Shown here: positions 3,406-63,059 of the stretch, piece by piece | How positions within the stretch are numbered: the first letter of the stretch is position 1 | How the letters are laid out: the number at the start of each line of letters is the position of its first letter | From: Escherichia phage dhabil | Sequence record: MN850621.1 | DNA: 64,000 nt | Reading direction: 5' to 3' (one strand) | The notes under the pieces: model-generated | What the model was told of the DNA's origin: nothing | Databases searched by the model: none | Seen by the model: the letters and a program-made list of their open reading frames with translations, nothing else | Made by a program: the position numbers and the translations under genes

Positions 3406-3651
3406 TTATTCAGGGTCAACTGCGCCATCCCACAGGTCAACTTCTTCTGATGATTCCATCAGTTCATCAACTGTGAAGCACTCAGTATTATTTTCAATAG
3501 CAAAACGCTTTTGATAAAAAGGATAATCCAAACAGTTTTCAGTACGAATAGGCCGCTCGCTATTATCCATTAAAGGAGAAATACGAATCAATTGTTGACC
3601 ATTACCTAAGACAAATTTTTCACCAACTGCGATATCTTTAAAAAGTTTCAT
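3406..3651 (-). CDS. hypothetical protein, 81 aa
   Basis: ORF-track start is TTG at 3693; moved to ATG 3649-3651 with SD GAGGAAAA. Confidence 0.4.
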   Translation of the reverse strand: MKLFKDIAVGEKFVLGNGQQLIRISPLMDNSERPIRTENCLDYPFYQKRFAIENNTECFTVDELMESSEEVDLWDGAVDPE

Positions 3652-3777
3652 AATATTTTCCTCAGAAGTTAAAGAATACACGTACATGGTCAATCATAAA
3701 AACTATTGGGAAAATGCTCAATACAACCAATAACACAAACATGTTCCAAATTGCTTTAAGTAAGTTTTTCATAATCA

Positions 3778-3827
3778 TCTCCATTAGTTGATAGGTCTAT
3801 AATATCATGTCTAATGGAGATGTAAAC
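3778..3827 (-). promoter_or_regulatory. promoter cassette with RBS-pairing stem
   Basis: Minus GTTTAC (3822-3827), N17, TATTAT (3799-3804); 10-bp arms 3778-3787 / 3811-3820, right arm contains the SD GGAG. Confidence 0.6.
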
Positions 3828-4225
3828 ATTGATTGTTATCATTATTACTGGAAATAATATCACTCATATTAAGCGCCAGAACCTACTCAAACCCTGCGCT
3901 CCCAATTTCAAGGTTAGAGCGGTTGTCAAAGATTTTGCACCGACCTTTAACCTGGCTGGATGCGTAGAACTCCGCAGTTTCTTGAACATCAAAAGCATAC
4001 AACCTTGTTTCTAAATCGCGATAACGTGGTTCGCCGTTAAGTTCAAACCAAATCATAATAGTTACTGGGATCATTTTCGGGTTCCTTGTTTGTTGGTGTA
4101 TGAGTACTATAACATGCTAAATCTGAGATGTAAACTGATTTATGCTAATTTCCACAACAATAAACTAAAGCATATACAAATAATTGGAATACAAGTCATC
4201 CAAATAAGGCACCACGTTTTGCTAC

Positions 4226-4491
4226 TCAAAACACCACCTCTTTTATCTCAATCAATCCCCTGTGCAATGCGGTGCGAAGGTCATAAAGGATATCTATACC
4301 GTCAACATTATCCAGTTTACCGTCGATAAGTTTTTGTAAATCTTTTTTTGACGCTATCAAAGGGCGGAGAAATTTACATTCAGAAAGAGATAACTCTGTA
4401 GTAACATCATCACCTTCACCTGATGCATCATACATAGCGGCGACAACCATACCCGTAACTTTGTGTTTAGCGTAATATAATTTGATATCCA
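4226..4491 (-). CDS. hypothetical protein, 88 aa
   Basis: ORF-track start 4552 runs through the promoter; moved to ATG 4489-4491 with SD GAGGAG. Confidence 0.45.
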
Positions 4492-4509
4492 TTTTGTTCT
4501 CCTCATTAG

Positions 4510-4550
4510 TTGATAGGAAGATAGTAACACCATCCATGGCGTATGTAAAC
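4510..4550 (-). promoter_or_regulatory. T4-early-type promoter cassette
   Basis: Minus GTTTAC (4545-4550), N18, TACTAT (4521-4526); TTGATAGG core variant. Confidence 0.5.
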
Positions 4551-4563
4551 ACTTATTTTAAAA

Positions 4564-58889: not shown

Positions 58890-59276
58890 TTATTCTAACG
58901 TTAACAAATACTTAGTCTGGTAAAAGACACCAGTGATGTCGTCCAAAGTCGATTGGATGGCCTTAGGAAGATTTTTGTAGATTTTATCAGACGCTTTAAT
59001 AAGTTCATCAAGAAAATCTATGGGGTCTTTAGGCAGTTCTGAAGCAGACGGTAGTGATGCTTTATATTCTTTGCCACTAAATCCTAAATACTGTTCACTG
59101 AACTGGTCTAGTGGTCCTTGAACTTCTGTATAATAGAAGTCATATGCTTTGTGTCTTGCATAGCTTTTGGTTTCCAAATGGGCTGACTTAAAATAGGCTA
59201 AAGAAACCAACAGCCAGCCAATATAAGAATCTACTTCAGTCCCTCGACTAAGTACGAAATCATTGAATTTCATCAT
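58890..59276 (-). CDS. hypothetical protein, 128 aa, at the position of T4 rI.-1
   Basis: ATG at 59274-59276. Confidence 0.45.
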   Translation of the reverse strand: MMKFNDFVLSRGTEVDSYIGWLLVSLAYFKSAHLETKSYARHKAYDFYYTEVQGPLDQFSEQYLGFSGKEYKASLPSASELPKDPIDFLDELIKASDKIYKNLPKAIQSTLDDITGVFYQTKYLLTLE

Positions 59277-59553
59277 CTACCTTCATTAGTTTAGCGTATC
59301 GTTCTCCGATAGCCCGACCTTCAATCGAGCAAGACTCTATTGTATTGCAATTTGAAATTTTCCAAGAAGCAGTTACATAAGCCCAGTAGTCTTCGGAAGC
59401 CTTTACACTAGGTTTACTCATTTGCGCATAAACTGGCATCGCACTACTAGCAAAGGCATCCATCAATTTAGGGTCGGATTTGTTTGCTAGTGAAGATGTC
59501 GGGCTTAAACATCCAATCATAAGGATACAAGCCACTGTACGGAAAATACCCAT
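59260..59553 (-). CDS. rI: RI-like lysis inhibition regulator (signal-anchored periplasmic protein)
   Basis: 97 aa; N-terminal hydrophobic anchor; C-terminal EGRAIGERYAKLM resembles T4 RI as recalled; position near tk. Confidence 0.5.
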   Translation of the reverse strand: MGIFRTVACILMIGCLSPTSSLANKSDPKLMDAFASSAMPVYAQMSKPSVKASEDYWAYVTASWKISNCNTIESCSIEGRAIGERYAKLMKVDDEIQ

Positions 59554-59646
59554 ACAAAAGTCCTTTGTTATTTTATACGAATTTGCCTTTCGGCCTTAAC
59601 CGATAGCGATTACCAAAAGCTAAAGCTCTACGGTTAGTATTACTAT

Positions 59647-59925
59647 TTATAGCTTTTTAAGCTTACGACAATAAGAATAGAACACGTCGTTAAAATTATA
59701 TTCAACCCAATTCCTCTGTATAGGCGAGGTAATGGAAAGCATATAATGCGCTTTAATTAAATCCATTCCATTTTTATTAGGACATTCTTTATTATTAGCA
59801 TTATACGTCGCTGCTACAACTTCTATCTCTCTTTTGTAAGCCACATCATCCATGATGGGCGAAAGAACAATATAAGAGATGGCCACAGCGAACGCTAGAA
59901 TTAAAATCTTTGAATTTAGGTCCAT
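59647..59925 (-). CDS. signal-anchored periplasmic protein, 92 aa
   Basis: N-terminal transmembrane segment with VLSP motif; adjacent to tk. Confidence 0.45.
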   Translation of the reverse strand: MDLNSKILILAFAVAISYIVLSPIMDDVAYKREIEVVAATYNANNKECPNKNGMDLIKAHYMLSITSPIQRNWVEYNFNDVFYSYCRKLKKL

Positions 59926-60700: not shown

Positions 60701-60903
60701 TTAGGTTCACCATATCGCACAAATTTAGGATGTTCGCAATAACCAGAATGAAAACCTTCACCCTTATGATTAGAGCAGCCTTTATTAGAGCAATACCACC
60801 AGTAATCATATTCGCAATTCATTTCATCGTTGCATAAAGCTGCGATTACAGGCCATTCACATTTTTCACATTTGGCCGTTTTAAGAATTCGCACTTGACT
60901 CAT
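60697..60903 (-). CDS. Cys/His-rich putative metal-binding protein, 68 aa
   Basis: CEKCEW...CNDEMNCEYDYWWYCSNKGCSNHKGEGFHSGYCEH. Confidence 0.45.
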   Translation of the reverse strand: MSQVRILKTAKCEKCEWPVIAALCNDEMNCEYDYWWYCSNKGCSNHKGEGFHSGYCEHPKFVRYGEPK

Positions 60904-61354
60904 AATCCACCACTATTAAATCAATATCAGGAGTAAACATGTCGATTAATTTAGAAACCTTGTCCCAATCACCACCAGCAATACCACAACCTATGCGCGG
61001 AATATAAATTCTTGGTTTAAACAAAAGGTCATTTGCTTGTAGATTTAATTCTATCATACAGTTTACTAAAGCACCGTAATCAAGATTAGGGCCTGGTTCG
61101 TATTGGGTGTACAAATTATAACACATACCAAACCCAGTAGGCTTATGTTTAAAAACAATAGACATGTCACCTAATTTATCACGAGAACCATATTCAGTAG
61201 TGGTCTTATCAATTTCTAATATTTTAGGATAGGCCCTTGCTAATTGACCAGCCACCCCTGAACCCATAGTATGAAAACAGTTGCACCCGTGTGCAATAAT
61301 ATTACCTTGAAGAAACAGGGCGACGATATCGCCCTTAATATAATCAATAATCAT
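60881..61354 (-). CDS. macrodomain protein, TARG1/DarG-like ADP-ribosyl hydrolase fold
   Basis: 157 aa; GDIVALFLQGNIIAHGCNCFHTMGSGVAGQLARAY and PRIGCGIAGGDW parallel the TARG1 motifs (LAHCISEDCRMGAGIA and PRIGCGLDRLQW) as I recall them. Confidence 0.6.
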   Translation of the reverse strand: MIIDYIKGDIVALFLQGNIIAHGCNCFHTMGSGVAGQLARAYPKILEIDKTTTEYGSRDKLGDMSIVFKHKPTGFGMCYNLYTQYEPGPNLDYGALVNCMIELNLQANDLLFKPRIYIPRIGCGIAGGDWDKVSKLIDMFTPDIDLIVVDYESSANS

Positions 61355-61707
61355 TTAGAGTTTAGCCCTCGGTTGTAAGAGTCAACGAGTCTGTCTACCA
61401 TAGACGCGCACATTTCTTTGTACTTTTTATCAGACGGAACACATTCAGTAACGTTTAGACGTTGCTCGTATCTTTTAGAAAGAGTTTTCTCTTTCATTCG
61501 GCGATGCTCGACGTCGTTCTGTCCATCTTTAAAAGCAGCTGTTATTTTTGAACTGAATTCAATAACGCATTCAGTATTACTCGGATGACAATAATCTTTT
61601 GCTGTACGGGTGGCATACTCGACAATTGAATTATTTGTATCATCAACCTGTGATGCTAATACTCCCGGAGCAATCAACATAAGCGCTATAGTCATCTGTT
61701 TAATCAT
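61351..61707 (-). CDS. secreted protein, 118 aa
   Basis: Signal peptide MIKQMTIALMLIAPGVLAS; four Cys in the mature part. Confidence 0.45.
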   Translation of the reverse strand: MIKQMTIALMLIAPGVLASQVDDTNNSIVEYATRTAKDYCHPSNTECVIEFSSKITAAFKDGQNDVEHRRMKEKTLSKRYEQRLNVTECVPSDKKYKEMCASMVDRLVDSYNRGLNSK

Positions 61708-62247
61708 TTAATATACCGCCTCAAACATCTTTTTAGATTTTAGGTAATTGGCCTTTTCTAGAACTTCGGAAGCATATTTACTGCCTGCTTTGACATTCCA
61801 GCCCGCATTATAAGAAGCAATCGCTTTTCTCAGGTCACCTTTGTGAACATCAATCCAATAAGACAGCTCAATGTAGGCCCAAGAGGCACTGTTCTGTCGT
61901 TTTTGGACCATGCGAATTATTTCTTTGTCTGACATCTTCCAACCTACCTGTTGAACACGACTTCTTAACGTAGGCAAGTAATTTTGGAACATGCCATAAG
62001 CATGGTGCTTATCTTTATTTAAACCTTGATTAATTCCAGCAGATGATTCCTGCCATAATAATCCGGCCATTATATATCCTAATCCTTTTTGATTAGGGTT
62101 TTCTTTGAACTTTCCCGACTTTTGGTATTGTTCACCGAAAGCATACGCATAATGTAAATTATCGAGTTGTTCATTACTGAAAGTAGGCTCTACGCTATAG
62201 GCAGACATACTAACTGTCAATAGTAAAGTGGCTAATACTTTTTTCAT
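61708..62247 (-). CDS. periplasmic lytic-transglycosylase-like (SLT domain) protein
   Basis: 179 aa; signal peptide; SLT signature QESSAG...YGMFQ (ES catalytic pair and GxxQ). Confidence 0.55.
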   Translation of the reverse strand: MKKVLATLLLTVSMSAYSVEPTFSNEQLDNLHYAYAFGEQYQKSGKFKENPNQKGLGYIMAGLLWQESSAGINQGLNKDKHHAYGMFQNYLPTLRSRVQQVGWKMSDKEIIRMVQKRQNSASWAYIELSYWIDVHKGDLRKAIASYNAGWNVKAGSKYASEVLEKANYLKSKKMFEAVY

Positions 62248-62259
62248 GAGACCTCATTA

Positions 62260-62718
62260 TTAAAGATAGATTACTTTCGTGCTGGTTTTACCTTCTAAAC
62301 GTTTAGAATTAACAAATGCCATACGACATTTTAATGAATATCCTTTATCAGGATGTTTACGATCTACGGTCATACCCAACCATAAGGTTTTATCGGTAAT
62401 CTCGAGACGCAGTGGACGATACACTTTACCTGGGACAATTTCAGATTCTATGTCAGGAAGAGGCTCCTGGATTAAAAATTCATGGATTTCTTTAACATGA
62501 TTGTGGAGCTTCTTGAACAAAGAGAAAACATATTTTTCGTCAATTTCACGTTGGATAGCACGGTCCAACAAGTGATTAGAGTACTTAATAAAGAAAGCTG
62601 GGACACCGCTCTTAATGGCGGCTTTTTTGATGGACGCGTTAAGTTCACGAAATTCGGTTTCGAACTGACGACGTAATTTGTTGCGGCGGATGAATACTTC
62701 TGAATTAATTTCTGACAT
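62260..62718 (-). CDS. regB: RegB site-specific endoribonuclease
   Basis: 152 aa; EVFIRRNKLRRQFETEFRELN...HLLDRAIQREIDEKYVF...YRPLRLEITDKTLWLG matches T4 RegB as recalled. Confidence 0.7.
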   Translation of the reverse strand: MSEINSEVFIRRNKLRRQFETEFRELNASIKKAAIKSGVPAFFIKYSNHLLDRAIQREIDEKYVFSLFKKLHNHVKEIHEFLIQEPLPDIESEIVPGKVYRPLRLEITDKTLWLGMTVDRKHPDKGYSLKCRMAFVNSKRLEGKTSTKVIYL

Positions 62719-62726
62719 TTTGTAAT

Positions 62727-62775
62727 CTCCTGTAGTTGATAGGTCTATAGTACCACGTCTACAGGAGATGTAAAC
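62727..62775 (-). promoter_or_regulatory. promoter cassette with RBS-pairing stem, upstream of regB
   Basis: Minus GTTTAC (62770-62775), N17, TACTAT (62747-62752); 9-bp arms ctcctgtag / ctacaggag, right arm contains the SD. Confidence 0.6.
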
Positions 62776-62780
62776 TGCTT

Positions 62781-63059
62781 TTAGTATTTTTCCTCAGGTT
62801 GGAAAACGGAACGACAGGCCCACATGGATGCTTCTTTCAAGCGTTCGATTGCCGTACGAATCTGGGCGAGGCGTTCATGAGTAAGGTCGAATTCTTCATC
62901 ACTCATTTTATCAACACCGGAGCATGTAAAGGCTTCAACATATTCTTCTTCTAATGCTTTAAAGATTAAGCCCAATCGAACTTCAGCATCTTTAATGGCA
63001 TTCACTTTACCGATTTTATCGTCGGTATGTGGCTTGTAACCTTTGATGTCTTCAATCAT
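62781..63059 (-). CDS. hypothetical protein, 92 aa
   Basis: ATG at 63057-63059. Confidence 0.4.
   Translation of the reverse strand: MIEDIKGYKPHTDDKIGKVNAIKDAEVRLGLIFKALEEEYVEAFTCSGVDKMSDEEFDLTHERLAQIRTAIERLKEASMWACRSVFQPEEKY

Follow-up and report, generated by a model that had tools for sequence, protein, structure and literature searches.

What the two short genes beside regB in T4-like phages encode, and where in the infected cell their products would act, is the question raised by positions 61351–62247 of a 64,000-nucleotide (nt) stretch of Escherichia phage dhabil (MN850621.1), the whole of which is referred to here as the window. A first-pass annotation had placed two consecutive genes there next to regB; they lie on the minus strand, and both the open reading frame (ORF) coordinates and the Pfam match of regB agree with that placement. 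The two genes, which that annotation did not recognise, are the T4-type vs.1–vs pair. Taking the proposal as a whole, we think it moderately probable that Vs.1 would be an early, Sec-exported periplasmic lytic transglycosylase (LT) for wall remodelling, with Vs as a co-exported accessory.

61708..62247, minus strand: vs.1 ortholog, encoding a 179-amino-acid (aa) precursor with a single SLT/GH23-like lytic transglycosylase domain and a putative catalytic E67

61351..61707, minus strand: vs ortholog, encoding a 118-aa precursor annotated as ‘valyl-tRNA synthetase modifier’

The 179-aa product shares 67% identity with T4 Vs.1 (NP_049725) and matches phrog_600 over residues 1–177 (E 4.6e-67); its length, leader, motifs and position between regB and vs equal those of the T4 ortholog, with no difference of substance. 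The 118-aa product is 46% identical to T4 Vs (NP_049724) and matches phrog_1256 (E 4.3e-34), and its close homologs match PF26829 (ValRS_modifier). Four Cys residues are found at equivalent places in the T4 protein, the conserved C-terminus, SMVDRLVDSYNRGL, is identical in the two, and the position is the same. Neither Vs.1 nor Vs was matched in a search of NCBIfam. The T4 gene order tk.4–vs–vs.1–regB is reproduced in the window, and the region 60800–62800 is 100% identical at the DNA level to Escherichia phage CLB_P2 (Dhakavirus, JS98-like, Tevenvirinae). With DNA-level matches to the region in 519 phage records, and tblastn matches in 2,074 phage records for Vs.1 and 795 for Vs, these genes are not chance ORFs.

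For the larger protein, the lytic transglycosylase signature originally noted (an ES pair and GMFQ) is indeed present. Vs.1 of the window carries WQE67S68SAG, YG85MFQ88N, SY146NAG149 and Y158, and the corresponding motifs I–IV (E67-S, G85-M-F-Q88, S-Y146-N147-A-G149 and Y158) are invariant among 69 T4-like sequences. The invariant residues are W65, E67, S69, G85, Q88, N89, E127, W131, Y146, N147, G149 and Y158. E67-S68 is also invariant in seven sequences spanning five phage lineages; homologs of 26–33% identity from Felixounavirus, Kuttervirus and a 310-kb jumbo phage keep E67-S68, G85, Y146-N147-x-G149 and Y158, with Q88 lost in the jumbo-phage protein. Such invariance is the pattern expected from purifying selection on catalysis. 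Pfam SLT (PF01464) was matched by 61 of the 69 homologs at E<=0.01 (best 1.3e-7), and no other family was matched.

An AlphaFold2 (AF2) model of Vs.1, built from the 69-sequence alignment, was confident except in the leader (predicted local distance difference test (pLDDT) 89, predicted template modelling score (pTM) 0.83). Ranks 1–25 of the Foldseek search of the PDB with this model were occupied by MltD, Slt/Slt70, MltE, LtgA, goose-type lysozymes and one related GH23-type chitinase, at probabilities of 0.92–1.0, so that the lysozyme-like superfamily fold expected of this protein was not refuted by prediction. Judged on its motifs and predicted fold, Vs.1 would belong to the family-1 LTs of GH23. 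A profile search with Vs.1 against PDB chains returned only non-significant matches to goose-type lysozyme (E ~0.4), which served for residue mapping and not as evidence; in that alignment E67, GMFQ, YNAG and the Tyr are placed on goose-type lysozyme, with E67 on the catalytic Glu. The interval from E67 to G85 holds no conserved Asp or Glu (D80 of the window is Pro in T4), and the ‘vdk’ segment of goose lysozyme aligns as an insertion against the Vs.1 profile. Goose-type lysozyme (GH23) is a fold match whose Asp residues after the catalytic Glu have no conserved counterpart in Vs.1, and the absence of a conserved Asp after E67 favours transglycosylase chemistry over hydrolysis of the g-type lysozyme kind.

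Compared with the characterized family-1 (GH23) enzymes Slt70, MltE/EmtA, Pseudomonas aeruginosa MltD and Neisseria LtgA, Vs.1 is alike in helical fold, in the ES, G-x-x-Q and (A/S)-Y-N-x-G motifs and the Tyr, in its single catalytic Glu and in its (predicted) periplasmic location, whereas identity is merely 13–20%. It differs in being a bare domain of ~160 residues, without the superhelical domains of Slt70, the LysM modules or the lipid anchor found among these enzymes, in its family-specific invariant residues W65, N89, E127 and W131, and in being phage-encoded and early. The mature protein (~18.6 kDa) has no Cys and is basic, with an isoelectric point (pI) of 9.4 (9.4–9.7 for Vs.1 more generally). 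In domain layout it resembles the LTs of secretion and conjugation systems, VirB1, P19 of plasmid R1, IpgF and EtgA, which are ~150–190 aa long with a Sec leader and a single SLT domain, and which are presumed to open the wall locally and to a limited extent without bulk lysis; we know of no trans-envelope machine associated with Vs.1. Nolan et al. 2006 (PMC1524935) described a marginal similarity of vs.1 to SLT in six T4-like phages, in a passage that attributes it to the T4 genome paper. The SLT similarity is thus already known, in print since 2003–2006, and is not a discovery of the present analysis.

Both products had been called signal-peptide proteins, and both begin with a basic n-region, then a hydrophobic stretch free of charge, then a small-x-small site, all of them conserved across their families. 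Leader calls were based on features of the n-region, core and cleavage site, together with conservation in 69 Vs.1 and 27–35 Vs homologs; for Sec export and signal peptidase I (SPase I) cleavage the criteria were a basic n-region, a hydrophobic core of 7–15 residues, small residues at -3/-1 and an acidic or polar mature start. The Vs.1 leader reads MKK-VLATLLLTVSMSAYS, followed by VEPTF, with residues 1–18 as the predicted leader and cleavage between AYS and VE. That of Vs reads MIKQ-MTIALMLIAPGVLAS, followed by QVDD, with residues 1–19 as the predicted leader and cleavage between LAS and QV. Leader sequences drift freely in both families; the basic start, uncharged core and small-x-small sites are kept in nearly all members, and in the AF2 models both leaders scored pLDDT <50. 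Median lengths of the uncharged stretch are 16 residues for Vs.1 homologs and 18 for those of Vs; in 55 of 69 Vs.1 leaders it is of 18 residues or fewer, with small-x-small sites present. The short core and these sites favour a cleaved signal over a leader of the signal-arrest-release (SAR) type, a weakly hydrophobic transmembrane domain of ~20 or more residues that stays uncleaved and is able to exit the membrane. Vs homologs at four loci of one T4-like lineage (L033, L035, L053 and L039, about 3549–3875) carry a canonical lipobox, LSGC, in the form MKKLFVLLVVVALSGC before K; a lipobox is sensible solely on an exported protein and so supports export of Vs. Taken together, these sequence features argue strongly for export of Vs.1 and Vs, probably with cleavage of their leaders.

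The arrangement of the two genes was examined at 70 IMG/VR loci carrying a Vs.1 homolog. At 64 of them vs lies downstream of vs.1 on the same strand, with a gap of -8 to +7 nt in 55; at eight distant loci one or two genes intervene between vs.1 and vs, and six loci have no vs. The vs of L039 is broken into two ORFs beginning at the usual junction, the result of a frameshift or a sequencing error. The pair is retained at loci without regB and tk.4. No statement quantifying the tightness of this pairing was found in the literature searched. The junction in the window is as follows.

61705..61728, minus strand: vs.1/vs junction, ...TTTGAGGCGGTATATTAAATGATT, with TAA followed directly by ATG and a GAGG Shine-Dalgarno inside the end of vs.1

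GAGG stands 11 nt upstream of the vs ATG; the T4 counterparts overlap by 8 nt. The abutment of TAA and ATG, with the Shine-Dalgarno internal to vs.1, points to translational coupling of vs to vs.1. Another T4-like lineage (L060–L062 and L074, about 3856–4561) lacks vs; upstream of tk.4 it encodes a non-homologous lipobox protein of 146 aa (MKKSIAVVLALSIYGC…), directly so in L061 and L074, with L060 ending before that position.

The description of a secreted LT in an early region as unusual proved overstated, given more than 2,000 phage records that include Felixounavirus and Kuttervirus. Phage wV8 (Felixounavirus) gp003 (L077, 2501–3094), directly after rIIA/rIIB, and phage Det7 (Kuttervirus) gp70 (L078, 2456–3073) are Vs.1-type homologs of ~31% and ~29% identity by tblastn, respectively, with leader and catalytic motifs intact. 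Vs homologs with a name or context, from the named searches and the loci, all come from T4-type phages; one Vs record, on a ~169-kb contig, is catalogued as Acinetobacter baumannii.

Three features upstream of the pair bear on when it would be transcribed.

62260..62718, minus strand: regB endoribonuclease (Pfam REGB_T4, E 2.2e-69), the upstream gene in the same transcription unit

62248..62259, minus strand: regB–vs.1 spacer of 12 nt, TAATAATGAGGTCTCATG, with a GAGG Shine-Dalgarno for vs.1 and no promoter

62747..62774, minus strand: sigma-70-type promoter-like site upstream of regB (TTTACA, 16 nt, TG-n-TACTAT), from a consensus scan

Since the spacer of 12 nt holds no promoter, vs.1 and vs would be read from the regB transcript; regB itself is context and lies outside the function of the pair. 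The sigma-70-like site may serve regB–vs.1–vs as an early promoter, and is weak evidence alone because the count of such sites is not above shuffle expectation. By consensus scan no late-promoter motif TATAAATA was found near the pair, nor was a MotA box found in front of vs.1. In T4, vs and vs.1 give early RNA and middle protein (PMC9697503 supplements). Both proteins are therefore made, and the early-region expression originally claimed for the pair holds for the T4 orthologs.

Under our proposal, Vs.1 would be made pre-replicatively off the regB transcript, exported by Sec and freed of its leader. It would act in the infected cell's periplasm as a small, soluble, single-domain family-1 LT in which E67, as the single catalytic Glu, would cleave MurNAc–GlcNAc bonds to give 1,6-anhydro-muropeptides; its activity would amount to limited remodelling or conditioning of the wall and would not make it an independent lysis enzyme. 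Vs would be translated by coupling from the shared mRNA, exported and folded into four helices with two disulfides, to serve alongside Vs.1 in T4-like phages as an accessory, whether as a regulator or as a periplasmic effector acting independently. We infer here the export and cleavage of the two proteins, the LT chemistry, any interaction of Vs with Vs.1 and the physiological role.

Of the roles first suggested for the enzyme (superinfection exclusion, lysis timing and cell-wall remodelling), none is favoured decisively. Remodelling as opposed to lysis is indicated by the behaviour of T4 gene e and by the timing of vs.1. Classical T4 e mutants fail to lyse. In the HIDEN-SEQ transposon screen of T4 (bioRxiv 10.1101/2025.11.20.689424), e was nearly essential, with a mean of 2.5 insertions per site. 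From these two observations Vs.1 cannot dissolve the sacculus alone; together with the early vs.1 RNA and the lack of a late promoter before vs.1, the near-essentiality of e is the reason for preferring a remodelling role. In the same screen vs and vs.1 were both non-essential. Their insertions in liquid LB were ~10-fold rarer than those in neighbouring genes, with means of 26.6 for vs and 22.6 for vs.1 compared with 652 for vs.3, 290 for tk.4 and 179 for regB. When LB was compared with M9-glucose, vs was the most depleted T4 gene in M9-glucose (log2 fold change (log2FC) -2.19, adjusted p (padj) 0), and vs.1 had a log2FC of -0.87 (p 0.0055, padj 0.155). Insertions in vs.1 may be polar on vs; the weaker effect of vs.1 argues against full polarity.

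In an alternative explanation, Vs.1 would be an auxiliary lysis enzyme that is held inactive, by a SAR-like tether or by inhibition through Vs, and released at holin triggering, so as to set lysis timing or to aid the lysis of slow-growing cells. In M9-glucose the loss of vs was more harmful than that of vs.1, as expected if Vs restrains Vs.1; moreover, Vs.1 has an LT domain, and the rI antiholin gene lies within a few genes of the pair in all T4-like loci examined. Inhibition of an LT has a precedent in Ivy, which inhibits MltB. "Some role in cell lysis" was proposed for vs.1 by Nolan et al. (PMC1524935), and T4 Spackle (gp61.3; PMC7677548) is a small, helical, disulfide-bonded early protein that acts as a periplasmic inhibitor of the gp5 lysozyme by binding its basic patch. 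Vs resembles Spackle in being an early T4 product with a cleaved periplasmic targeting signal and a small α-helical bundle with disulfides (predicted for Vs), whereas no sequence or fold similarity between the two is detectable. We regard this lysis role as unlikely, on the following grounds: no late promoter lies near the pair and its RNA is early; the core of the Vs.1 leader, with a median of 16 residues and a cleavage motif, is short for a SAR anchor; near-essential e leaves Vs.1 unable to lyse alone; Vs has no significant fold match to Spackle or to any other PDB entry; and LT homologs occur without Vs.

The smaller protein poses the sharper question. The claim of a second secreted protein stood as far as its leader is concerned; what it missed was the identity of the gene as vs and the conflict with its annotation as a valyl-tRNA synthetase (ValRS) modifier. 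C40, C47, C89 and C100 of Vs are invariant down to 17–25% identity, where the leader is also kept, and the mature homologs examined have exactly four Cys each. The AF2 model of Vs (pLDDT 78) has four helices (23–39, 45–68, 73–89 and 94–115), with the Cys pairs flanking the first and third helix–helix turns. On this model Vs is most probably a four-helix protein stapled by two disulfides, and the four Cys may alternatively form a metal site. Mature Vs would be ~11.5 kDa in the window and ~11.1 kDa in T4 (precursor 13.1 kDa), with a pI of 7.8–8.9; a 1977 paper on Vs reportedly describes a factor of roughly 10 kDa, to which the mature mass of T4 Vs comes nearer than that of its precursor. A search of BFVD by fold returned Vs orthologs and one phage ‘lipoprotein’ and nothing else. 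When 1.84 billion representatives were searched exhaustively by profile for Vs relatives, 27 clusters were obtained, all single-domain and ~77–135 aa long, and those inspected all had a leader and four Cys. A recognisable inhibitor fold was considered for Vs and rejected, Spackle, Ivy, PliG and MliC being absent among the best 50 PDB matches listed.

The conserved leader and four invariant Cys predict export, and it is this prediction that conflicts with the label of a cytoplasmic ValRS modifier; no statement of predicted Vs export, and hence of the conflict, was found in the literature searched. We put forward only tentatively the fuller claim that Vs is exported, periplasmic, disulfide-stapled and, in some lineages, lipid-anchored, and that it is made coupled to Vs.1 and works with it in the envelope. 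If this were true, association with ValRS would be moonlighting or a mixing of compartments upon cell breakage, and the minimal-medium phenotype of vs would report an envelope function rather than aminoacylation.

A number of results weigh against the proposal, in part or as a whole. For the enzyme, the Pfam SLT score of the window protein itself was 15.7 bits (E 0.011), below the gathering cut-off of 21.3, and the fold matches were modest (E 0.01–0.13, TM-score 0.40–0.51). The sub-threshold score and the modest fold-search E-values are also the grounds for reading Vs.1 as a catalytically dead, peptidoglycan-binding LT look-alike. We give that reading very little credence because all four-motif residues, including the general acid E67, are invariant in the 69 T4-like sequences, and those other than Q88 hold in four further phage lineages. 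For Vs, a Foldseek search of the PDB gave no significant fold match (best E 0.69, probability 0.23), and a neutral-to-basic mature Vs is, with a basic Vs.1, a poor fit to an acidic-on-basic interface in the style of Spackle. As to partnership, no Vs adjoins the Vs.1-type homolog in wV8 or Det7; the LT of Felixounavirus and Kuttervirus thus occurs without Vs, from which the enzyme would be independent of Vs, and Vs a T4-like-specific addition and not an obligatory partner. A mirror-tree comparison over 41 loci, in which RegB and Tk.4 controlled for linkage, gave r 0.73 for Vs.1–Vs and 0.85 for RegB–Vs.1 (partial correlation 0.20), i.e. no co-evolution beyond linkage; it leaves a physical interaction unsupported, yet is no strong evidence against one. 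The minimal-medium defect fits a periplasmic role no better than a role in aminoacylation. Lastly, Vs was historically reported to bind cytoplasmic ValRS (Müller & Marchin 1975, 1977, as cited in PMC8076793).

This last report underlies the main rival explanation, that Vs is a cytoplasmic ValRS-binding modifier, its adjacency to vs.1 being inherited synteny without functional meaning, its N-terminus a poor signal or a membrane tether, and its Cys metal-binding. Besides the historical assignment, the depletion of T4 vs in M9-glucose, where amino-acid supply is limiting, is in keeping with such a function; a basic mature Vs is compatible with binding of an acidic synthetase and tRNA, and co-evolution of Vs with Vs.1 does not exceed that of neighbouring genes. 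Other properties of Vs speak for the opposite conclusion. The Sec-type leader is kept in all full-length homologs despite free sequence drift, with a canonical lipobox in one lineage, the four Cys are invariant across the family, and charges that are basic before the core and acidic after it predict a C-terminus outside the cytoplasm. Furthermore, Vs of T4 and of CLB_P2 has no in-frame ATG past the leader from which a leaderless form could start, and N-terminally tagged T4 Vs was insoluble upon cytoplasmic production. With evidence on both sides, a cytoplasmic ValRS modifier seems to us possible but doubtful.

The genes around the pair were considered next to a further explanation, in which Vs.1 would act against other phages or against host defence, altering the sacculus or making or consuming muropeptides so as to block superinfection or an envelope-sensing defence. 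Downstream of vs lies the following gene.

60881..61354, minus strand: tk.4 ortholog, encoding a macro-domain protein of 157 aa (Pfam Macro, E 1.2e-7)

T4 tk.4 is named ‘adfM’ in the HIDEN-SEQ preprint (bioRxiv 10.1101/2025.11.20.689424), where it is anti-DarTG. Just upstream of regB, a 92-aa ORF (62781..63059, minus strand) matches the Pfam Acb2/Tad1 hairpin domain (E 3.5e-16), and the features of JS98 for the stretch around it include the vs.4 gene; its product is likely, by this match, to be a cyclic-nucleotide sponge against CBASS or Thoeris. These counter-defence neighbours lend the explanation some support, as does the fact that Vs.1, like Imm and Spackle, is early, (predicted) periplasmic and non-essential. 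We consider it improbable all the same. Neither vs.1 nor vs reached adjusted significance in the T4 comparisons covered, which were that of the T4_REF library with the T4_ΔrnlA library and that of RexAB (the RnlAB, DarTG1, DarTG2, Mokosh and clinical-strain sheets lay outside this coverage), and cutting of peptidoglycan would ease, not hinder, the entry of a superinfecting phage.

Several further signals were recorded around the transcription unit. The Shine-Dalgarno of regB, GGAG at 62722..62739 on the minus strand (ACAGGAGATTACAAAATG), is the motif at which RegB itself cleaves, an arrangement shared with autoregulation in T4; the Shine-Dalgarno of both vs.1 and vs is GAGG, not GGAG, from which the downstream transcript may escape inactivation by RegB. 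A stable RNA hairpin, GGGCGAUAUCGUCGCCC at 61317..61335 on the minus strand (ΔG -14.2 kcal/mol, z -3.0), starts 16 nt past the vs stop, within the first codons of tk.4, and has a U-rich tail after it. Its stem is conserved in T4, which may reflect coding because the sequence also encodes a KGDIVAL motif; the structure could be a terminator, an attenuator or an mRNA-end structure of the regB–vs.1–vs unit. A MotA-box-type match (TGCTTTA, 12 nt, TAGAAT) occurs inside tk.4 at 61048..61073 on the minus strand, toward tk.3, tk.2 and tk, and the window holds 10 such matches against 3.45 expected. An exact TATAAATA is found at 59644..59651 on the minus strand, one of two in the window, ~90 nt upstream of the rI antiholin ortholog (59260..59553, minus strand).

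The pair is made up of catalogued T4 genes, and the finding is mostly ordinary; its odd part is the export-like Vs. Vs.1 would represent a small, secreted, early LT predicted in more than 2,000 genomes of virulent myoviruses of Gram-negative hosts (T4-like, FelixO1-like and ViI-like), and, with its measurable effect on T4 fitness, it is a cheap and well-defined target. The leader or lipobox of Vs and its four Cys cast doubt on a 50-year-old label that has spread through hundreds of genome annotations. The localisation of Vs is the one part that could matter, bearing as it does on how vs, the strongest minimal-medium-specific fitness gene reported in T4, is to be read.

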